DNA of 10,013 nucleotides, taken from the IMG/VR virus record IMGVR_UViG_2778261352_000004, positions 1 to 10,013 of that record, one strand, 5' to 3'. The position numbers and the translations under genes were made by a program. Shown in pieces: positions 1 through 10,013 of this stretch (position 1 is the stretch's first letter; each line of letters opens with the position of its first letter). The notes under the pieces are model-generated. The model searched no databases. It worked only from the letters and a program-made list of their open reading frames with translations, and had not been told where the DNA came from. The stretch comes from a virus (taxonomy: Duplodnaviria > Heunggongvirae > Uroviricota > Caudoviricetes).

Positions 1-2334
1 TCAGGTTGTCGCAGGGTCGTCACATTTTGGCAGCCAGTCGCCGTAGCTTTCCTCTTTCAGCGTCAGGTTGGTCTGTATCCCCTGTTTGGTATGGCGCTTC
101 TCGTAATTCAGCCCGTATTCCTTCAGCATCACCGGCAGCCCCAGCCCGAACATTTTCAGACTGAGTACATTCCGGTAGCCGTTTGCCTCCATGTAGGCCA
201 GATAGGCGTGATAGAGGTATTTACGGTAATTACGCGGGATGATACTGGCGTTCCCCATATACATGCCGCTGGTCTGCGGCAGGGTTTCCAGATAGCCGAT
301 AAAATCAAACATCGGGTCGGCATCCCGTTTGATGTTCAGTGCCTCGTCTGAGTTCTGCTGGGACTGAAGCAGTGACCGGGCGAGCATCGGGTCGCTGAAC
401 TTCTGCATCAGGTGACGCACGATGACCGCCAGCTCGCGGGTGATTTTGTCCTTAAGCTGCGGGTCGCGCTCCTGCGGGGCTATCTGTTCCGGGAAGTGAA
501 TAATCACCCGCCGGCGTGACACGCCGCCGCTGCGGTCGGTGAAGCGCATCGGGTTATTGTTCACGGCCAGAATCACCGCCGGGATGTGCGTGGAGTACGC
601 ATCCCGGTATTTCGGGTCAACGGACACCGCATCGCCGCCGGTGATGGCCTTGAGTCCGGCTCCGTCGCCGCTCCATTTTTCCTGGTCCGGCAGGCGTATC
701 AGTGAGAAGCCAGTTAACGCGGCACGTTCACGCGGGGATTCCAGCGTCTCGATGGTGGCCGACGTGGCGTTATCCTCCCCGGCCAGCAGGGTGGCTATTT
801 CGGCCATGATACTTTTGCCGCTGCCGCCGGGACCGGTCACCTCCAGAAAGAGCTGCCAGTCGTAGCGGTTTGCCAGCACCATAAACAGTGCGGCCAGAAT
901 CACGTCGCGTTTTTCCGCACGGCCACCGGCGGCACGGTCAAGCCAGCGCCAGAACGCGGGGGCGTGGGTTTCCAGCGTTTCCCCTTCCACCGGCGGGGTG
1001 AAATCCACATCGCACAGGGTGCGCATCCAGTGTGACGGACTGTGCGGGTGGAACGTGCCGTTCTGCGTGTCGAGCACGCCGTTACGAAAGCCAATCAGGC
1101 GGCGGGAGGGGGCTTCCTGCTGCGGAATAATCAGCTTCAGGGTGTCCACCACGGAGGCCACTTTCCCGGAGGAGAACGGCGCGCGCAGACGCTGAAACAG
1201 CCCGGCCACATCCCGGGCAAAGTCCTGTGGTGGCAGTACCTTCCAGACACCATTTTCATAGCGGGACAGAAGCTGGCCGTTGGCATCGACCGCGAGCGCC
1301 TCGCCGTAATGCTCATAGATACGCATGGCCTTTTCGCTGGTACTCATGGCGGAAAACTCCGCTTCGCTCATGGTGTCGAACGGGCTTTCAGCCGGTGGCC
1401 GGATGGCATCATAAATGGCCTTACGGGTGGCTTCCCCGCCGTACTGCGTGAAGGCATCATTCCAGTCACCGAAGACCGGCGGCAGGGCAACAACACCTTC
1501 ACACGCATCTGCGGCTGCGGCGGCTTTTTTCTGGCCGTCACCGCTGAGGTCACGGTCAGCAGCAAGGACAATCTGACAGGCCGGATGCTTCTGCCGGGCA
1601 AGGCTGGCCAGAGAAAGGAGGTTCACGGAAGAAAGCGCCACCATCACCGTTTCACCGGTCAGGTGATGCACGGTAAGTGCGGTCGCGTATCCCTCCGCTA
1701 TCCACAGACGTTTTCCGGCCTGATTCTGTCCTTCAAGGGTGTGACAGGTGCCCCTGACCTGTCCGCCTTTCAGGGTGCGCTTACGGCCGTCAGCACTGAT
1801 TAACTGAAGGTTAACCAGTTCGCCGCTGTCGTCATACAGTGGCACCACAAGGTCACCGGCGCACCAGCTCACGCCACCGGCTCTGTGTGTGCCGGTCAGC
1901 ATCCGGCATTCCCGGCCGGGAAAGCCCTTGCGGGTCAGGTAGGCGTTACCGGTTCCGGGACGGGTTTTTGCCATCAGGGTTTGTGCCAGTGCGGCGGCGT
2001 TCTTCCGGGCAGCGTCTGTTTCAGCGCCGGCGGCGGCCGTCACTGCCGGGTCAGCCGGGGGCAGGCTGCCGGTCACGGCAGCCACCTTTGCGGCCGCGTC
2101 GGACGGGGAAACACCAAACACCTTTTCAACCAGTTTCAGGCCGTCACCGGCACCACACTGATTGCAGTACCAGGTGCCGCGCCCCTCCCTGTCATCAAAA
2201 CGGAAGCGGTCACTCCCGCCACAGACCGGACAGGGCTGATGACGGTTCTTAAGCACCTGAATCCCCAGCGCCGGGAGAATACGCGGCCAGTGGCCGAGCG
2301 CATGGCTGACGGTGGCGGTTACGTTCATTTTCAT
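1..2334 (-). CDS. alpha: P4 alpha-type primase-helicase (origin-binding replication protein), 777 aa, complete
   Basis: N-terminal zinc-binding motif CPVCGG...WYCNQCG (nt 2155-2232); TOPRIM-like acidic residues in LWIAEGYATA...LAADRDLSGDG; Walker A GPGGSGKS (nt 811-834). SD AAGGAG 9 nt upstream of ATG at 2334; stop TGA at 1-3. Length equals recalled P4 alpha. Confidence 0.95.
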   Translation of the reverse strand: MKMNVTATVSHALGHWPRILPALGIQVLKNRHQPCPVCGGSDRFRFDDREGRGTWYCNQCGAGDGLKLVEKVFGVSPSDAAAKVAAVTGSLPPADPAVTAAAGAETDAARKNAAALAQTLMAKTRPGTGNAYLTRKGFPGRECRMLTGTHRAGGVSWCAGDLVVPLYDDSGELVNLQLISADGRKRTLKGGQVRGTCHTLEGQNQAGKRLWIAEGYATALTVHHLTGETVMVALSSVNLLSLASLARQKHPACQIVLAADRDLSGDGQKKAAAAADACEGVVALPPVFGDWNDAFTQYGGEATRKAIYDAIRPPAESPFDTMSEAEFSAMSTSEKAMRIYEHYGEALAVDANGQLLSRYENGVWKVLPPQDFARDVAGLFQRLRAPFSSGKVASVVDTLKLIIPQQEAPSRRLIGFRNGVLDTQNGTFHPHSPSHWMRTLCDVDFTPPVEGETLETHAPAFWRWLDRAAGGRAEKRDVILAALFMVLANRYDWQLFLEVTGPGGSGKSIMAEIATLLAGEDNATSATIETLESPRERAALTGFSLIRLPDQEKWSGDGAGLKAITGGDAVSVDPKYRDAYSTHIPAVILAVNNNPMRFTDRSGGVSRRRVIIHFPEQIAPQERDPQLKDKITRELAVIVRHLMQKFSDPMLARSLLQSQQNSDEALNIKRDADPMFDFIGYLETLPQTSGMYMGNASIIPRNYRKYLYHAYLAYMEANGYRNVLSLKMFGLGLPVMLKEYGLNYEKRHTKQGIQTNLTLKEESYGDWLPKCDDPATT

Positions 2335-2348
2335 GGTGTTGTTCTCCT

Positions 2349-2669
2349 TCAGTGCAGTACCGGCGCTTTTATGTGACGGGCACAGAGTTCATCCATCACA
2401 ACCAGCCCGAGAAAGGACAGCGACGGCGCGGCCTTCAGGGGGCCGGATTCCATTAAATCTTCCAGCAGGGCACAGGCTATCTGACGCCCTTTTTCCTCAC
2501 CGTGCTGGCGCAGATAAAAGCCTTCCAGCTCAGCGGCGATGGCCGCCTCCAGTGACTCAAGGGTAAGATGCGGGTAGCGGTGCTGACGTTCGCACACGGT
2601 CAGCCAGGCACAGGCGACAGCGCGACGGTAAAGGGCAGCGCGTAAGACGGGCGGTAAGGGTGTTTTCAT
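2349..2669 (-). CDS. conserved hypothetical protein, P4 orf106-like (106 aa), immediately upstream of alpha
   Basis: Strong SD GGGAGG 7 nt upstream of ATG; stop TGA overlaps the alpha SD region; same strand and operon as alpha. Size and position match recalled P4 orf106; no function inferable. Confidence 0.7.
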
Positions 2670-2750
2670 TTGCTTTCCTCCCTGTGACAGATGACTGCAT
2701 TCCGTGCCGGTTGCATTAACTGATAAGGCATATCTGCTTCTCCTGAAGAC

Positions 2751-2776
2751 GTGCGTATCCCTGCGCGAATACGCAC
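2751..2776. promoter_or_regulatory. 8-bp perfect inverted repeat (GTGCGTAT-N10-ATACGCAC) between the orf151-like and orf106-like genes; possible attenuator, terminator or protein-binding site
   Basis: Read directly: gtgcgtat 2751-2758, loop 2759-2768, atacgcac 2769-2776. On the plus strand it is followed by ATTTAATTTTT; on the coding (minus) strand there is no U-tract after it. Confidence 0.3.
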
Positions 2777-2804
2777 ATTTAATTTTTCGGGTGTCGTTTT
2801 TTAA

Positions 2805-3260
2805 TTACAGATAATTGCGGTAACTGTTATCCGGGGTGATTTCCGGGTCAGGCTCCGTGCGGGGAATTTCCCGCCATTCCCGCGCCACCGGTGCCGCCCG
2901 GCTGACCGGAACAGGGTCCTGCGGGTAAATATCCAGATATTTCTCCCGCCATTTCTGTAATTCCGGGTCTCCGGCCATTTCTTTCAGTACCGCATGCCGG
3001 TTTACGGGGCTGCGTTTAAACAGGTCAGGACGGTCACAGGTAAATTCCCGCAGAAAACGCCCCAGCGGGATGTCTGTGGTGCGCCCGTCGGCGAGGATAC
3101 GCACAAGGATACTGAATTTACGGCGGTACGGATTCCAGACAATGTCCGGGCAGCGGTACGGCATTTCCCACGGAATACCGTCTTCCAGAATGCCGACCAC
3201 GGCCACATCGGGAAAACCGGCAGAACGGTAAATCTCACCGGGCTGGGGAAAATCAAACAT
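2805..3260 (-). CDS. conserved hypothetical protein, P4 orf151-like (151 aa)
   Basis: ATG at 3260-3258 overlaps the last codons of the upstream 95-aa gene (stop TGA 3255-3253); stop TAA at 2807-2805. Same strand as alpha operon; size matches recalled P4 orf151. Confidence 0.7.
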   Translation of the reverse strand: MFDFPQPGEIYRSAGFPDVAVVGILEDGIPWEMPYRCPDIVWNPYRRKFSILVRILADGRTTDIPLGRFLREFTCDRPDLFKRSPVNRHAVLKEMAGDPELQKWREKYLDIYPQDPVPVSRAAPVAREWREIPRTEPDPEITPDNSYRNYL

Positions 3261-3540
3261 GCGTCCTGTCTCCCCGGTCTTTCTGCTGGGCGAGAAAATC
3301 GCGGCACAGGCCTTTGGCTTTCAGCTCATTCAGCACAAAATCAATATCTTCATTCAGGTAGCTGAAAATATGCGGAATGTAGAGCTGATGCAGGCCGGAG
3401 AGTTCACGGTGAATCAAATCACCCCCAACAAACTGGGATACGGCGCTGGCGCGGTTGAGCTTATGGTAAGCCTCAATGCTGAGGTGTTCACGGGCGTCAT
3501 GACGCGCTGAGACGGTCTGAGGGGCTTTTTTATTACGCAC
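3253..3540 (-). CDS. 95-aa left-operon protein; candidate epsilon-like (helper derepression) gene by position and size only
   Basis: GTG start at 3540-3538 preceded by strong SD GGAGGTG with about 6-nt spacing; in-frame ATGs further upstream lack any SD. Start overlaps the stop of the kil-position ORF and stop overlaps the orf151-like start. No motif recognised. Confidence 0.45.
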
Positions 3541-3730
3541 GGGACACCTCCACCACCGGCAGACGGGCAGCAAGGGAGAGCACATAGTCACGGACAAGGG
3601 AACGGCGGGCGCTGCGTTCATCACCGGCGACGGTGCGAAGCATACAGATACGGGGATGACGGTCTGCGCGACGGACAGCCGCAAACACAAAGACAAATTC
3701 AGGGTGTGAGGGGGTAAGGGTCGTAGCCAT
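3533..3730 (-). CDS. 65-aa first gene of the left (immunity-controlled) operon; kil-position small protein
   Basis: ATG at 3730-3728 with strong SD GGAGG 7 nt upstream (3742-3738); stop TAA 3535-3533. The same frame stays open upstream to 4168, so a longer nested form cannot be excluded. Confidence 0.45.
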
Positions 3731-3802
3731 AAGGCAACCTCCGATAACAGCGTAAATGACGCTATCGCCGGAGTTCTCACGCTCGATGGCGATAGCCCAG
3801 AC

Positions 3803-3831
3803 GGGGGTGAGAATACCGGCGTTATCGGAAA
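3803..3831 (-). promoter_or_regulatory. antisense-type element in the immunity leader, complementary to two sense repeats (3995-4025 and 3741-3780)
   Basis: Minus-sense RNA here reads UUUCCGAUAACGCCGGUAUUCUCACCCCC. Its CCGAUAAC and UUCUCAC blocks are exact complements of GUUAUCGG and GUGAGAA, which occur in both flanking repeats; 13 of 15 contiguous nt pair with the copy abutting the kil-position SD. Confidence 0.3.
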
Positions 3832-3969
3832 CCGGCCAGCCCGGAGGCTGCCCCGCCTGAGCTACCATTGACTCAGTGGCATAACATGCGATTGCGAACA
3901 GGATCATACCTGCACGGCAAACCACACGCCACACCATAATCTGGTGCTCTGTGGCGTTGATTGCGACAC

Positions 3970-3991
3970 AAAAAAAGACGCATGGCGCGTC
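3970..3991 (-). terminator. Rho-independent terminator in the immunity leader (hairpin GACGC-GCCAU-GCGUC followed by U7)
   Basis: On the minus strand: 5-bp GC-rich stem (plus 3977-3981 / 3987-3991) immediately followed by seven T (plus-strand A-run 3970-3976). Lies about 130 nt downstream of the vis stop. Confidence 0.55.
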
Positions 3992-4047
3992 ATATGTCGC
4001 CGATAACATACTCGGGTTCTCACGCCCGGCTGCCGATTTTGCGGCAG
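3970..4047 (-). ncRNA. candidate small structured RNA (about 78 nt, promoter-to-terminator unit), possibly a P4 CI-like immunity RNA or leader
   Basis: Candidate sigma70 promoter just upstream (4055-4084), then a 7-bp hairpin GCUGCCG-N6-CGGCAGC (4029-4048), further short helices, and the intrinsic terminator at 3970-3991. Contains the sense repeat GUGAGAAC...GUUAUCGG. Confidence 0.3.
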
Positions 4048-4054
4048 CGGAAAA

Positions 4055-4084
4055 ACTATATCCGCAAATGCCGGAAAAAGGCAA
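4055..4084 (-). promoter_or_regulatory. candidate sigma70 promoter (P_LE-like): -35 TTGCCT, 18-bp spacer, -10 TATAGT, reading leftward
   Basis: Read directly on the minus strand: TTGCCT at plus 4084-4079, TATAGT at plus 4060-4055. Motif match only; no expression data. Confidence 0.3.
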
Positions 4085-4119
4085 GCCAGAAAAAGGGAGT
4101 TTTTGCAGAGCGGGCATCA

Positions 4120-4386
4120 TCATGCGTCGTACCCCCGTTTGCGTCCGGCAATGCGTCCGGCCATCCATGCGGTGACTTCAGAGTGCAGCCAGGCCACATT
4201 TTTACCGCCAAGACTCACCTGCGGCGGAAATTCCCCCTTACGGATGAGTTCATAGATGGTCGAGCGTGACAGGCCGCACAGGTGCATCACTTCCGGCAGA
4301 CGTAAAAAACGCTCCTGCGTGATGTCCGGCAGCGGCATCAGTGGCGTCACAGGGGCGGGAGACGGGGAAGAAAAAACAGCTTGCAT
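4120..4386 (-). CDS. vis: Vis/AlpA-family DNA-binding regulator (excisionase-like), 88 aa; P4 orf88/vis equivalent
   Basis: Protein carries the AlpA-family signature region FLRLPEV...[17 protein letters not shown]...[21 protein letters not shown] 5 nt upstream of ATG at 4386; stop TGA 4122-4120. Confidence 0.9.
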
Positions 4387-4488
4387 CGGGCTACCTCGTT
4401 AATGTCCATACAGCACCGGATAAGTCCGTCCGGCTTCGGGTAGCGCTTTATTTTGTGAATATTTTTGGCAGACGCAACAGGGGGGATT

Positions 4489-4506
4489 TGTTCCGGCAGC
4501 CTTACA
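4489..4506. promoter_or_regulatory. TGT-N12-ACA dyad upstream of vis; candidate Delta/Ogr activator site of the leftward late promoter (P_LL-like)
   Basis: Read directly: TGT 4489-4491, 12-nt spacer, ACA 4504-4506; a TGT-N11-ACA near-copy lies at 4512-4528. The consensus is recalled from P2/P4 late promoters. Confidence 0.4.
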
Positions 4507-4664
4507 ATGGCTGTGCATTTTTTGTACATCAGCGCCAGATAGCTTTAAAACGCTCTGGAAGGAGCTGGAAAAAATTATAGTGAAATACAAATTGTTTTTT
4601 CTTATTTATTTCAGTGAATTAATAAAAATAAAAAGTAATAAACAGCACAAAAAGCCCATCAACG

Positions 4665-4769
4665 GGTGAACAGTGGTGAACAGACGGTGAACAGTCATTA
4701 CTGCGATTGTTCACCCTTTAACTTATTGTATTACTTATCTTTTTTCTTATGGTGAACAGAGGTGAACAG
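4665..4769. repeat. origin-like iteron cluster: five direct GGTGAACAG copies plus one inverted TGTTCACC, inside an AT-rich tract (candidate ori, alpha-binding type I iterons)
   Basis: Copies at 4665-4673, 4675-4683, 4686-4694, 4751-4759 and 4761-4769, with inverted TGTTCACC at 4708-4715. Flanked by very AT-rich sequence from about 4575 to 4800. The octamer TGTTCACC is recalled as the P4 alpha-binding iteron. Confidence 0.7.
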
Positions 4770-4847
4770 TAAAATATAAAAAAACAAACAGTAAGCCGGT
4801 TTTTCCTGCGACCTTTTCCTGGCTTGCCGGTCTGAGGATGAGTCTCC

Positions 4848-4865
4848 TGTGTCAGGGCTGGCACA
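4848..4865. promoter_or_regulatory. TGT-N12-ACA dyad about 75-90 nt upstream of sid; candidate Delta/Ogr-activated P_sid promoter element
   Basis: Read directly: TGT 4848-4850, 12-nt spacer, ACA 4863-4865, placed where a -55-centred activator site for a start near 4910 would sit. Confidence 0.45.
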
Positions 4866-4937
4866 TCTGCAATGCGTCGTGTTGTTGTCCGGTGTACGTC
4901 ACAATTTTCTTAACCTGAAGTGACGAGGAGCCGGAAA

Positions 4938-5672
4938 ATGTCTGACAACACCATCCCTGAATATCTGCAACCCGCACTGGCACAACTGGAAAAGGCCAGA
5001 GTCGCTCATCTTGAGAACGCCCGCCTGATGGATGAGACCGTCACGGCCATTGAACGGGCAGAGCAGGAAAAAAATGCGCTGACGCAGGCCGACGGAAACG
5101 ATGATGACGACTGGCGCACGGCCTTTCGTGCAGCCGGTGGTGTCCTGAGCGACGAGCTGAAACAGCGCCACATTGAGCGCGTGGCACGCCGGGAGCTGGT
5201 ACAGGAATATGACAATCTGGCCGTGGTGCTGAATTTTGAACGTGAACGCCTGAAAGGGGCGTGTGACAGCACGGCCACCGCCTACCGGAAGGCACATCAT
5301 CATCTTCTGAGTCTGTATGCAGAGCATGAGCTGGAACACGCCCTGAATGAAACCTGTGAGGCGCTTGTCCGGGCAATGCATCTGAGCATCCTGGTACAGG
5401 AAAATCCGCTCGCCAACACCACCGGCCATCAGGGCTATGTCGCACCGGAAAAGGCTGTCATGCAGCAGGTGAAATCATCGCTGGAACAGAAAATTAAACA
5501 GATGCAAATCAGCCTCACCGGTGAGCCGGTTCTCCGGCTGACCGGACTGTCAGCGGCAACACTTCCGCACATGGATTATGAGGTGGCAGGCACACCGGCA
5601 CAGCGCAAGGTGTGGCAGGACAAAATAGACCAGCAGGGAGCAGTGCTTAAGGCCAGAGGACTGCTGTCATGA
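4938..5672 (+). CDS. sid: Sid, capsid size-determination (external scaffold) protein, 244 aa
   Basis: ATG at 4938 with SD GAGGAG 8 nt upstream; the GTG at 4920 in the ORF track has no SD. N-terminus MSDNTIPEYLQPALAQLEK; stop TGA overlaps the delta start in an ATGA junction (5669-5672). Length matches recalled P4 Sid. Confidence 0.92.
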   Translation: MSDNTIPEYLQPALAQLEKARVAHLENARLMDETVTAIERAEQEKNALTQADGNDDDDWRTAFRAAGGVLSDELKQRHIERVARRELVQEYDNLAVVLNFERERLKGACDSTATAYRKAHHHLLSLYAEHELEHALNETCEALVRAMHLSILVQENPLANTTGHQGYVAPEKAVMQQVKSSLEQKIKQMQISLTGEPVLRLTGLSAATLPHMDYEVAGTPAQRKVWQDKIDQQGAVLKARGLLS

Positions 5673-6169
5673 TTTACTGCCCGTCGTGTGGACATGTTGC
5701 TCACACCCGTCGCGCACATTTCATGGACGATGGCACCAAGATAATGATTGCACAGTGCCGGAATATTTATTGCTCTGCGACATTTGAAGCGAGTGAAAGC
5801 TTTTTCTCTGACTGTAAAGATTCAGGAATGGAATACATTTCAGGCAAACAGAGATACCGCGATTCACTGACGTCAGCCTCCGGCAGTATGAAACGCCCGA
5901 AAAGAATGCTTGTTACCGGATATTGTTGTCGGAGATGTAAAGGCCTTGCACTGTCAAGAACATCGCGACGTCTGTCTCAGGAAGTCACCGAGCGTTTTTA
6001 TGTGTGCACGGATCCGGGCTGTGGTCTGGTGTTTAAAACGCTTCAGACCATCACCCGCTTCATTGTCCGCCCGGTCACGCCGGACGAACTGGCAGAACGC
6101 CTGCATGAAAAACAGGAACTGCCGCCAGTACGGTTAAAAACACAATCATATTCGCTGCGTCTGGAATGA
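5669..6169 (+). CDS. delta: Delta, Ogr-family zinc-finger late-gene transcriptional activator (tandem Ogr-like domains), 166 aa
   Basis: Two Cys-cluster halves (CPSCG...CRNIYC and CCRRC...CTDPGC) typical of duplicated Ogr-like zinc fingers; translationally coupled to sid; length matches recalled P4 Delta. Confidence 0.92.
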   Translation: MIYCPSCGHVAHTRRAHFMDDGTKIMIAQCRNIYCSATFEASESFFSDCKDSGMEYISGKQRYRDSLTSASGSMKRPKRMLVTGYCCRRCKGLALSRTSRRLSQEVTERFYVCTDPGCGLVFKTLQTITRFIVRPVTPDELAERLHEKQELPPVRLKTQSYSLRLE

Positions 6170-6242
6170 GGGCTGCCGGTTAACACCGGCCGTCGCCGCA
6201 CACCGTATTTTTATTCTTCAGCATGATGAGAAAGAGATAACG

Positions 6243-6815
6243 ATGGAAAGCACAGCCTTACAGCAGGCCTTTGACACCTGTCAGAATAACAAAGCAGCAT
6301 GGCTGCAACGCAAAAATGAGCTGGCAGCGGCCGAACAGGAATATCTGCGGCTTCTGTCAGGAGAAGGCAGAAACGTCAGTCGCCTGGACGAATTACGCAA
6401 TATTATCGAAGTCAGAAAATGGCAGGTGAATCAGGCCGCCGGTCGTTATATTCGTTCGCATGAAGCCGTTCAGCACATCAGCATCCGCGACCGGCTGAAT
6501 GATTTTATGCAGCAGCACGGCACAGCACTGGCGGCGGCACTGGCACCGGAGCTGATGGGCTACAGTGAGCTGACGGCCATTGCCCGAAACTGTGCCATAC
6601 AGCGTGCCACAGATGCCCTGCGTGAAGCCCTTCTGTCCTGGCTTGCGAAGGGTGAAAAAATTAATTATTCCGTACAGGATAGCGACATTTTAACGGCCAT
6701 CGGATTCAGGCCTGACGCGGCTTCGGTGGATGACAGCCGTGAAAAATTCACTCCTGCGCAGAACATGATTTTTTCGCGTAAAAGTGCGCAACTGGCATCA
6801 CGTCAGTCTGTGTAA
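6243..6815 (+). CDS. psu: Psu, polarity suppression protein (Rho antagonist / capsid decoration), 190 aa
   Basis: Position after delta and about 165 bp before cos; length matches recalled P4 Psu; N-terminus MESTALQQAFDTCQNNKAAWLQRKNELAAAEQEY. Confidence 0.9.
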   Translation: MESTALQQAFDTCQNNKAAWLQRKNELAAAEQEYLRLLSGEGRNVSRLDELRNIIEVRKWQVNQAAGRYIRSHEAVQHISIRDRLNDFMQQHGTALAAALAPELMGYSELTAIARNCAIQRATDALREALLSWLAKGEKINYSVQDSDILTAIGFRPDAASVDDSREKFTPAQNMIFSRKSAQLASRQSV

Positions 6816-6845
6816 AATTCCCCGAAAATCCGCCCGTTTTTACTG

Positions 6846-6890
6846 AAAAAAGCCATGCATCGATAAGGTGCATGGCTTTGCATGCGTTTT
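6846..6890 (+). terminator. candidate intrinsic terminator of the sid-delta-psu operon (9-bp stem AGCCATGCA/TGCATGGCT, 9-nt loop, T-rich tail)
   Basis: Stem 6851-6859 / 6869-6877, followed by TTGCATGCGTTTT; an A-run precedes it, so it may act in both directions. Confidence 0.45.
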
Positions 6891-6979
6891 CCTGCCTCAT
6901 TTTCTGCAGACCGCGCCATTCCCGGCGCAGCCTGAGCGTGACTGTGCAACTGCATTAAAACCGCCCTGCAAAGCGGGCG

Positions 6980-6998
6980 GGCGAGGCGGGGAAAGCAC
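6980..6998. other. cos site: 19-nt P2/P4-type cohesive-end sequence GGCGAGGCGGGGAAAGCAC, uncleaved
   Basis: Exact 19-mer read at 6980-6998, preceded by inverted repeat CCGCCC-N8-GGGCGG (6961-6980). Matches the cohesive end as I recall it for P2/186/P4; spacing from the psu stop fits P4. Confidence 0.75.
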
Positions 6999-7102
6999 TG
7001 CGCGTTAGACTTAACTAAAGTGATTGATTCAGATGCTAAAAACGCGTAGAAAAAGGAATGCAACTACCCCTATCAGTGCTCCTCTTGAAGGATAAATAAA
7101 AA

Positions 7103-8788
7103 ATGAGCATTATTCACGTAAATCAAATTGGCAGTAAAGTTAAGGCATTATTTGCTGATAAAATTGATAACAGTGATCTCAATCATAAAGATAAAGAAAT
7201 ACAAACTAAAATATTGACTCGTTGTCTTTCTGCTTACGCTGTTTTTTGTATTGGAGATACCTCGATAGATGAGGCTGCGTCAGCAGTTGTTGATGGTGCC
7301 GATGATAATGGTATCGATGCAATTCATTATTCTCCTTCAAGTAAGAGGATGATTATTGTTCAATCTAAATGGAAAAAGGATGGAACAGGAGAACCTGATA
7401 ATGGTGATTTGAGGAAGTTTAAAGATGGTGTATTAGACCTCATTAATCTTGAGCTTGATAAATTTAATAACAAAGTAAATCTAAAAAAACAGATGATTGA
7501 AACAGCTTTGGGTGAGTTTGATACAAAATTTGATCTTGTTTTAATTCACACAGGTGCGAATACTCTAAGCAAACATAACCAACAAGTAATGGATTCAATT
7601 CTTAATGAATTAAACGATGCCGGTGATGGAACCAGTGAGGATGTTGTTAGTTTCCACCATCTGAATCAAGCGATAATTCATAGTGGTCTTGCCTCTGGTA
7701 TGGATGGGGAACCAATCGATTTGGAAATCGGTCTTTCACAATGGGGAAAAATTGAAGAGCCACATCAAGGTTTTTTCGGGATTGTAGCTGGTGAGGAGGT
7801 TGCAAATTGGTGGTTAAAAAAAGGGAAAAGACTATTTGCCAAAAATATTAGGCAAATGTTAGGTGCTACTGAAGTTAATGATGAGGTTAAGAGAACAATT
7901 GAGGAACAACCTGAGAATTTTTGGTATTACAATAATGGTATAACTATTGTTGCTGAATCTATAAAAAAATCGATGGTTGGTGGAAATAGTAGAGATATTG
8001 GTTCGTTTAAAGCGAGTAATATAAGCATTGTTAATGGTGCTCAGACTGTAAGCGTAATTGGTAAATATTCGCAAGAAGGAGGGGCAAATCTTGCTAAATT
8101 GCGTTTACCTATCCGATTGATTTCATTAGAAGGTGCGCCAGAAGACTTTGGTGCAAATGTGACAAAAACTAATAACCGTCAAAATAGAATCGAAAGCAGA
8201 GACTTTGTTTCCTTAGATGATGAGCAAATCCGGTTAAAAAGAGAACTATCCTTGGAGGGGATTGAGTATAATATAGTAAGGAGTGAGAATGTTAAGACAT
8301 CGGCTAGCATAATCGATTTATCTGAAGCGACCATTGCATTGGCTTGTGCGTCTACGCAGGTGGGTTTAGCAGTTCAAGCGAAAAGAGAAATAGGTCGATT
8401 CTATGACAATCTTAATAAAGCGCCATATAAAACAATTTTCAACCCGCAAACCAATGGTATTTATTTACGAAATACGGTATTTGCATTACGAAAAATAGAT
8501 GAAATAATTGGCGAAATGATTGCGAACATACCTAAAAAATCTGGTAAAGAGTATGGTGTTCTTGTTCATGGGAATAGGATGTTGGCATTTTTGGTTTTTA
8601 GAAAGTTGATGATACATAAAATCGCAAATAACTTTGATTTTGATATGTCTTCAATTGATTGGTATGAAACCACATCAGATATGCTTGAGAAATTGATGTC
8701 GGAAATTGAAGAGAATTATAAGGATAAGTTTCTTGCTACTTTATTTAAGAACGCAAGTATTTGTAAGGCTATATCCGAGAAAATATAA
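7103..8788 (+). CDS. hotspot cargo: 561-aa protein with N-terminal Mrr-type PD-(D/E)xK nuclease-like motif and AIPR-like (abortive infection) features; candidate single-gene anti-phage defence protein
   Basis: Single long ORF in a strongly AT-rich block flanked by GC-rich satellite DNA. N-terminal GADDNGIDAIHY...MIIVQSKW (D-G-I-D ... Q-x-K; Q87/K89 at 7361-7369). Also WYYNNGIT (7922-7945) and IVNGAQT (from 8027), which I recall as AIPR-type motifs. SD-like AAGGA upstream; stop TAA 8786-8788. Family assignment is from memory of motif patterns, not a search. Confidence 0.55.
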   Translation: MSIIHVNQIGSKVKALFADKIDNSDLNHKDKEIQTKILTRCLSAYAVFCIGDTSIDEAASAVVDGADDNGIDAIHYSPSSKRMIIVQSKWKKDGTGEPDNGDLRKFKDGVLDLINLELDKFNNKVNLKKQMIETALGEFDTKFDLVLIHTGANTLSKHNQQVMDSILNELNDAGDGTSEDVVSFHHLNQAIIHSGLASGMDGEPIDLEIGLSQWGKIEEPHQGFFGIVAGEEVANWWLKKGKRLFAKNIRQMLGATEVNDEVKRTIEEQPENFWYYNNGITIVAESIKKSMVGGNSRDIGSFKASNISIVNGAQTVSVIGKYSQEGGANLAKLRLPIRLISLEGAPEDFGANVTKTNNRQNRIESRDFVSLDDEQIRLKRELSLEGIEYNIVRSENVKTSASIIDLSEATIALACASTQVGLAVQAKREIGRFYDNLNKAPYKTIFNPQTNGIYLRNTVFALRKIDEIIGEMIANIPKKSGKEYGVLVHGNRMLAFLVFRKLMIHKIANNFDFDMSSIDWYETTSDMLEKLMSEIEENYKDKFLATLFKNASICKAISEKI

Positions 8789-8840: not shown

Positions 8841-10013
8841 TCAGAAAAATGAATAGATATAATTACTATACCATTGCATCATAGAGCGTCTTTTCTCTAA
8901 ATACTGAGCATGGTTATATGTTCCACGAATACTATTTTTATCAACATGTGCCAATTGCATTTCAATCCATGAGCTATCAAACCCTTGTTCGTGCAATATT
9001 GTCGACATGGTATGTCGAAAACCGTGGCCTGTAGCACGGCCTTTGTAGCCAAGTAACTCAATTACCTGTGAAACACTTTCTTTTGAGATCGGCTTGCTAC
9101 GATTGTTCCTTCCAATAAAAATGTATGGGTAATGTCCTGTAATAGGTTTGAGTTGTTTAAATAGGGTAATTACCTGTGTAGATAAGGGAACAATGTGTGG
9201 TCTACGCATTTTCATTCTTTCTGCTGGTATTTCCCATATACCCTTTTCCAGGTCTACTTCATTCCATGTGGCAAAGCGCATTTCCTGAGTTCTTATGCCA
9301 GTTAACATGACTATCTTTGTCGCATTTTTAGTGATGATGCTTCCGGTGTATGCTTCAAGATCTTGAATAAAATAAGGCAACTCTTCGGCAGATAAAAATG
9401 GGTGGTGTTTTTGTTTAGGAACGGTCAGAGCGATAGCTAAATCAGGTGCGGGGTTGTATTCAGCTCGGCCAGTTATGATTGCATAACGAAAGACCTCACC
9501 GCATCTTTGGCGCACTTTTCTGGTCTTCTCTAGTGCTCCTCGTTTCTCTATTCGTCGCAACACTTCAAGCAGTTCTAATGGTTTGATTTCACTGATAGGA
9601 CGTTTACCAATGAACGGGAAGACATCTTGCTCGAATGTCTTAATGATTTCTTCTCGATAGGCTACAGTCCAGCGGTCAGCTTTGTTGGTATGCCATTCTC
9701 GACATATTGCTTCGAAAGAATTTTCTATTGATAGCTTTTGAGCGAGTCTTAAAGCTTTGCGTTCCTCTACCGGGTCAATGCCATTAGCAACCTGCTTACG
9801 GGCGATATCACGCTTCTCACGTGCTTCTGCGAGGCTTACTAAATCGTAGCTGCCAAATGACATTAACCGCGCTTTCCCTGCAAACCGGAAACGGAAACGC
9901 CAGCCTTTCGAGCCATCGGGATTGATAAGCAATGACAGACCTTGTCCATCGTTCAATGTGTATGGTTTGTCTTGTGGTTTTGCGCGTTTGATCTGTATAT
10001 CGGTTAGAGCCAT
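8841..10013 (-). CDS. int: tyrosine site-specific integrase (P4-type, N-terminal arm-binding domain), 390 aa, complete
   Basis: ATG at the last three window bases (10013-10011); N-terminus MALTDIQIKRAKPQDKPYTLNDGQGLSL typical of P4-family integrases. Catalytic-type motifs LTGIRTQE, HGFRHT, LAHVD and RGTYNHAQY; stop TGA 8843-8841. Any SD or promoter lies outside the window. Confidence 0.9.
   Translation of the reverse strand: MALTDIQIKRAKPQDKPYTLNDGQGLSLLINPDGSKGWRFRFRFAGKARLMSFGSYDLVSLAEAREKRDIARKQVANGIDPVEERKALRLAQKLSIENSFEAICREWHTNKADRWTVAYREEIIKTFEQDVFPFIGKRPISEIKPLELLEVLRRIEKRGALEKTRKVRQRCGEVFRYAIITGRAEYNPAPDLAIALTVPKQKHHPFLSAEELPYFIQDLEAYTGSIITKNATKIVMLTGIRTQEMRFATWNEVDLEKGIWEIPAERMKMRRPHIVPLSTQVITLFKQLKPITGHYPYIFIGRNNRSKPISKESVSQVIELLGYKGRATGHGFRHTMSTILHEQGFDSSWIEMQLAHVDKNSIRGTYNHAQYLEKRRSMMQWYSNYIYSFF

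Follow-up and report, generated by a model that had tools for sequence, protein, structure and literature searches.

An AT-rich region with six iterons between vis and sid of a P4-type satellite of Escherichia coli, very probably the replication origin ori1 known from phage P4

Replication of the satellite phage P4 is reportedly independent of DnaA, DnaB, and DnaG; its origin (ori) reportedly forms, together with a second site named crr, the alpha-dependent replicon I, the alpha protein is said to bind both ori and crr, and Cnr, which is said to antagonise alpha, reportedly has a role in the control of copy number. As described in the P4 literature, alpha is built, in this order, of a DnaG-type primase, an SF3 helicase, and a winged helix, the last of which binds the origin repeats (P4 literature citing Ziegelin & Lanka 1995 and Yeo et al. 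2002); PDB entry 1ka8 was published, according to its structure title, as the "phage P4 origin-binding domain". As far as this literature reports, binding of the origin by alpha and replication dependent on alpha and crr have been shown experimentally for P4 itself. Since P4 is described, in the titles of the references, as having two replicons, the site is now named ori1.

The GenBank record of P4 (X51522) gives the most detailed description of the relevant sites. Its rep_origin feature (9086–9809) contains six "ori type 1 repeats", at 9310, 9320, 9331, 9353 (the only one on the plus strand), 9396, and 9406, while crr, annotated as the "cis required region", extends over 4291–4590, 46 bp past the alpha stop codon, and holds ten annotated octamers. 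The rep_origin interval spans both late promoters of the region and is far wider than the core formed by the iterons and the AT-rich DNA.

The DNA analysed here is a single stretch of 10,013 bp (the window), positions 1–6979 of which are 97.4% identical to phage P4 (X51522, 4636–11624). Near its centre lies a region that is, with little room for doubt, the replication origin (ori1) of a P4-type satellite inserted in an E. coli chromosome at selC, a tRNA gene, its function being one that near-identity would allow to be transferred from P4. The origin is already known, in that it is the annotated and experimentally characterised ori of P4, found here in a P4-like prophage. The features on which the argument draws are the following, in window coordinates and with the strand where the feature has one:

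1–2334, minus strand: alpha gene, the cognate initiator; intact ORF of 777 aa, assigned by its Pfam domains and the P4 annotation.
2349–2669, minus strand: ORF106 (cnr), predicted copy-number regulator of alpha-dependent replication; full-length DUF5375, orthologous to P4 ORF106.
4120–4386, minus strand: ORF88/vis, first gene of the leftward late transcript; AlpA-family HTH.
4489–4506: TGT-N12-ACA dyad, putative Delta/Ogr site of P_LL; pattern match.
4533–4578: variable cassette of ~45 bp, CGCCAGATAGCTTTAAAACGCTCTGGAAGGAGCTGGAAAAAATTAT, in place of the P4 type 2 repeats (P4 9172–9222).
4579–4660: left AT-rich block, GC 0.19–0.30; candidate DNA-unwinding element.
4665–4672, minus strand: type 1 iteron 1, exact TGTTCACC, reading GGTGAACA on the plus strand; orthologous to P4 9310–9317.
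4675–4682, minus strand: type 1 iteron 2, exact match, 10 bp from iteron 1.
4686–4693, minus strand: type 1 iteron 3, exact match, 11 bp from iteron 2.
4708–4715, plus strand: type 1 iteron 4, exact match, inverted, after a 12-bp gap from iteron 3.
4716–4750: AT-rich spacer of 35 bp between the inverted iteron and the iteron pair, GC 0.17.
4751–4758, minus strand: type 1 iteron 5, exact match.
4761–4768, minus strand: type 1 iteron 6, exact match, 10 bp from iteron 5.
4771–4795: right A-rich tract flanking the iteron pair, GC 0.16 (relatives average 0.23).
4848–4865: TGT-N12-ACA dyad, distal putative Delta/Ogr site of P_sid; pattern match, as in P4.
4886–4903: second TGT-N12-ACA dyad, proximal to the sid start; pattern match, as in P4.
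4938–5672, plus strand: sid, first gene of the rightward late operon (sid-delta-psu); ORF with P4 homology.

Exactly six copies of the octamer TGTTCACC are present in the window, all of them within 4665–4768, five being on the minus strand and one, inverted, on the plus strand; 0.36 copies are expected by chance, and six were reached in none of 200 dinucleotide-preserving shuffles. On the plus strand the five direct copies can be extended to GGTGAACAG(T/A), with start-to-start distances of 10, 11, 65, and 10 bp; the inverted copy at 4708 is a match over the 8-mer only, because its ninth base differs. When one mismatch was allowed, six more matches were found in the window, scattered, not above chance, and forming no second cluster. 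The octamers stand as GC-balanced islands inside AT-rich DNA, the GC content being 0.19 at 4560–4639, 0.35 at 4680–4759, and 0.29 at 4720–4799, well below the 0.50–0.62 of the flanking genes. Iterons 3 and 4 can pair as an 11-nt inverted repeat, 91% complementary (4686–4696 and 4705–4715); a terminator-like match at 4686–4715 was rejected as a terminator, since it is precisely iteron 3 paired with the inverted iteron 4. A full-text literature search for the octamer returned unrelated primer sequences only.

The same arrangement is found in P4. The spacing of the iterons (10/11/22/43/10 bp) and their orientation are those of the P4 type 1 repeats; in an alignment of the window with the P4 rep_origin, the columns average 95% identity over 560 bp, the iteron block (4642–4796) is almost base-for-base that of P4, and the sequence from the iterons to sid is essentially identical. 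An earlier note on this DNA had described six octamers, five direct and one inverted, in a very AT-rich block at 4575–4800, and had taken the octamer for the P4 type I iteron, present six times in ori: the exact count and the shuffles bear out the former, the contrast in GC content with the flanking genes agrees with the AT-richness, the coordinates frame the AT-rich block and the iterons correctly, and X51522 annotates six orthologous copies. As to ori2, which has been reported to lie inside the P4 alpha gene, a search of the window alpha gene (1–2334) for its signature gave no iteron cluster and just two single-mismatch matches, a chance level; if ori2 is present in the window, it is not iteron-based at the stringency used.

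The second iteron cluster, crr, lies outside the window and was observed solely in genomes to which the window is identical. Over its full length the window matches E. coli strains A17 and TUM1887 at 100% identity; in the latter, the element is found between setC and tRNA-Sec, window position 1 corresponding to position 6001 of the extracted locus (L003). Five exact copies of TGTTCACC occur there at L003 5687–5950, 51–314 bp past the first position of the window; degenerate copies can be made out in the surrounding sequence. The exact copies are contained in two direct repeats of 120 nt lying 181 bp apart (L003 5655–5774 and 5836–5955), which together take up 46–346 bp from the same point. In its exact matches the cluster follows the annotated P4 crr, and the site lies just past the alpha stop codon, 4.7 kb from ori; a second cluster beyond the 3′ end of alpha, which the earlier note had placed outside the window, is indeed present in these genomes.

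The origin is widespread and its organisation is deeply conserved. Of 5426 complete E. coli genomes, 1006 carry the 291-bp origin region, always on the chromosome and in most cases with an identity of at least 95%; no RefSeq feature underlies the origin among the matches listed. A scan of one genome per species yielded 80 loci with an alpha homologue (57–99% identity) from many genera of Enterobacterales, in which exact octamers concentrate 1.6–2.6 kb upstream of alpha and 50–330 bp after its stop codon. When clustered 7-mers were sought de novo, the iteron core GTGAACA/CTGTTCA came out first upstream of alpha in most of the loci whose alpha is at least 74% identical, and it again ranks first in the zone after the alpha stop. 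The layout 0/10/53/75/86/96 (counted from the sid side) is retained, with a tolerance of 1–2 bp, down to Rosenbergiella, where alpha is 57% identical. In an alignment of the window with 47 relatives, the iteron positions are 91% conserved, compared with 62% for the spacers, a difference that is partly circular because the loci were chosen for at least four near-matches; the GTGAA core is conserved at 98–100% at all six sites. Variation of GGTGAACA is confined to positions 1 and 7, the Pantoea group showing CTTCACC. The winged helix, which is 82%, 68%, and 58% identical in the three classes of alpha identity, diverges at the pace of the remainder of the protein, and a search of the distant elements for iterons of altered specificity found the GTGAA core invariant and gave no evidence of a specificity switch.

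Four of the loci (L005, L006, L007, and L040) carry an alpha 98–99% identical to that of the window under metagenome-assembled genome labels of Clostridiales, Ferruginibacter, Ruminococcus, and "bacterium"; almost certainly, contigs of E. coli satellites were binned wrongly in these cases. A survey of P4-like satellites (PMC8628076) does not discuss origins.

With up to one mismatch allowed, the crr zone holds 8.6 hits per kb, compared with 1.0 per kb in the background, and the clusters found in the background are crr-like units displaced downstream. Such a unit lies 0.7–2.3 kb past the alpha stop in eight loci (L012, L030, L031, L032, L035, L036, L039, and L057), sometimes in addition to one adjoining alpha, which points to insertions that separate crr from alpha or the two crr repeats from each other. 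The size of crr in the relatives also varies, one unit (~92 bp) or two (~260 bp) being present. At the threshold used, 20 of the 58 loci with full flanks, mostly those with alpha at 79% identity or below, have an ori cluster and no downstream cluster, and 5 of the 58 have neither, so that a two-site rule is not established for the distant relatives. In the Pantoea/Erwinia loci L046–L053, L056, and L081 (alpha 68–70% identical), there are few downstream matches resembling TGTTCACC, and CTTCACC is enriched.

The initiator itself is intact in the window, its Pfam domains comprising a zinc ribbon/Toprim primase and a D5_N/SF3 helicase followed by a C-terminal segment. Residues 671–770 are identical to PDB 1ka8 at 99 of 100 positions, in keeping with the earlier proposal that the C-terminal domain of alpha is the part that would bind the iterons. 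By analogy with what the P4 literature describes, the winged helix would bind the octamers in both ori and crr, the bound alpha would unwind the DNA through its SF3 helicase and lay primers through its DnaG-type primase, a host polymerase would then take over, and Cnr (ORF106) would restrain the copy number. The distance across iterons 3–5 is 65 bp, or ~6.2 helical turns, and that across all five direct copies is 96 bp, or ~9.1 turns; such phasing at 10–11 bp, close to whole helical turns, suggests that alpha protomers would be aligned along the same side of the helix. The DNA probably opens first in the 35-bp AT-rich spacer (4716–4750) or in the left AT-rich block.

These two AT-rich segments behave differently among the 47 relatives. 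The left block has a mean GC of 0.29, a length of 80–105 bp, and a positional identity of just 45%, being conserved in composition and not in sequence; the 35-bp spacer has a mean GC of 0.17, a length fixed at 34–36 bp, and many positions conserved at 90% or more, and it may be where unwinding or priming takes place. The left block (4595–4605) and the spacer (4740–4750) share TTTTTTCTTAT, a perfect direct repeat of 11 nt, and a 21-nt inverted repeat, 81% complementary, links the same two segments (4620–4640 and 4729–4749); both may simply reflect AT-rich composition. A search for the DnaA box TTWTNCACA with at most one mismatch found none within 4575–4800, the nearest lying at 4520–4528 and the count over the window being at chance level, and a search of 4575–4800 for the IHF consensus gave no match; these results fit a self-contained initiator, and DnaA boxes adjoining the iterons, as in DnaA-dependent iteron plasmid origins, are not found here.

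The position of the iterons between two late promoters invites a second reading, in which the octamers would be mainly operators through which alpha or another protein regulates P_LL and P_sid, replication being secondary or absent. The cluster does lie in a 550-bp gap between two divergent, activator-dependent promoters, and this placement is conserved: in 48 of 55 loci the ori cluster is flanked by the homologues of sid and vis, while seven loci have no detectable Sid match. The gene name Vis for ORF88 is taken from the literature, and TGT-N12-ACA is described there as the consensus of P2-type late promoters; the dyad at 4489–4506 would belong to P_LL by its position upstream of vis. A sigma-70 promoter scan of 4380–4960 found nothing, as expected since the late promoters are activator-dependent, and it is therefore uninformative on the location of P_LL and P_sid. 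However, the iterons are 158 bp from the dyad on the P_LL side and 79 bp from the nearest P_sid dyad, and overlap neither; the octamers are found again in crr, past the end of alpha, a place without any such pair of promoters; and in P4 the orthologous site bears the annotation rep_origin and is described as an origin. We therefore regard a primarily regulatory function as very unlikely, although alpha bound at the iterons may have a regulatory side-effect. By the same distances, the claim that the origin is interleaved with the late-promoter control region was too strong: it does lie between vis and sid, as had been proposed, but it is enclosed by the promoters on its two sides.

At one place only, the cassette at 4533–4578, is the alignment with P4 lost. 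The corresponding P4 sequence carries three 10-bp "ori type 2 repeats" (9176–9205), which fit the Cox-box consensus of P2, TTAAA(G/C)NC(A/C), and Cox is described in the literature as binding upstream of P_LL. Phased Cox boxes, present in P4, were not found in the window cassette, and a phased run of them at the equivalent position was found in none of the 55 relatives outside E. coli that keep the iterons; within E. coli, 373 genomes have the window type of cassette and ~440 the P4 type. As the type 2 repeats match Cox boxes, are absent from the window, and were not detected in the relatives, they fall outside the conserved origin, and we take them to be an activation element of P_LL and not a defining part of the origin. 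It is conceivable, though rather doubtful, that the cassette is an allelic module for helper recognition; if so, the lineage of the window would be derepressed by the Cox-like protein of another helper, or without any Cox, and, given that the cassette abuts the AT-rich flank of the origin, binding of a helper protein there could also influence origin firing.

A third reading takes the element for the remnant of a prophage that has become domesticated and immobile, and the origin for a relic, its sequence kept and its firing lost. The element is chromosomal, and its cargo is unlike that of P4, an AIPR gene replacing gop-beta-cII; on the other hand, the parts needed for replication are all intact (the 777-aa alpha, the full-length ORF106, six exact iterons, and a crr of two units), and so are the integrase, sid, and the delta and psu genes that follow sid in the window, all of them uninterrupted ORFs. 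That 1006 of the 5426 complete genomes have the 291-bp region, in most cases with at least 95% identity, speaks for selection and mobility that still continue, and a relic seems to us highly improbable. An origin of the repeats by chance or from low-complexity sequence in intergenic DNA, as the AT-rich flanks of simple sequence might suggest, can be dismissed, as the octamers are GC-balanced, exceed by far the 0.36 copies expected (0 of 200 shuffles reach six), and keep their layout and core across many genera of Enterobacterales.

The satellite to which this origin, in our preferred reading an active ori1, would belong differs from P4 in its variable region. The AIPR-family protein (abortive-infection type, 561 aa; 7103–8788, plus strand) lies between psu/cos and the integrase and represents a different cargo at the place where P4 holds gop-beta-cII. 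The integrase is a tyrosine recombinase of 390 aa (8841–10013, minus strand), compared with 440 aa in P4, and adjoins tRNA-Sec (selC; L003 16176–16270); a related element in E. coli 2012EL-2448 adjoins tRNA-Leu. At the end of the P4 homology, window ~6935–7010 is 89–95% identical to P2 and P2-like phages (Peduovirus, Yersinia, Escherichia), presumably a shared cos site.

As a discovery the result amounts to little, for it re-identifies, from raw sequence, one of the best-characterised origins of satellite phages. Its practical value lies in annotation: the origin is present in ~1000 of 5426 complete E. coli genomes and is unannotated among the matches listed, and the rule of six octamers at 0/10/53/75/86/96 between the sid and vis homologues could be tried as a means of annotating the ori of P4-like satellites. 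A further indication from the comparison is that the conserved origin does not include the "type 2 repeats" of the GenBank P4 record. A mild residual interest attaches to the allelic cassette at 4533–4578, to the depth at which the layout is conserved, and to the missing annotation among the matches listed.

Among the known systems, the Pri-Rep origins of the Gram-negative PICIs differ in several respects: as described in PMC6092414, the Pri-Rep sequence is unlike P4 alpha, the iteron sequences are not shared with the P4 type, and the origin adjoins the rep gene, whereas the P4-type ori lies 2.3 kb upstream of alpha. The iteron plasmid origins, such as the Rep-dependent origins reviewed in PMC4980987, are similar in having helically phased direct repeats bound by a winged-helix initiator, an adjoining AT-rich unwinding region, and, at another place on the replicon, a further cluster of iterons that contributes to control; they differ in that the P4 initiator is itself helicase and primase, that the window origin has no DnaA box, and that the P4 crr is required in cis and is not purely inhibitory. 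The closest system remains P4 ori1, from which the window differs in ~45 bp left of the AT-rich block (the P4 type 2 repeats), unrelated in sequence, in scattered substitutions within the left AT-rich block, and in the element that carries it, which is located at tRNA-Sec with an AIPR gene in place of gop-beta-cII. The two agree in the following: the same six TGTTCACC iterons are found with the same spacing and orientation in an iteron block of identical sequence, the site lies in both between ORF88/vis and sid, the initiator is the same, with a winged helix 99% identical, and crr, 4.7 kb away, has the same architecture.
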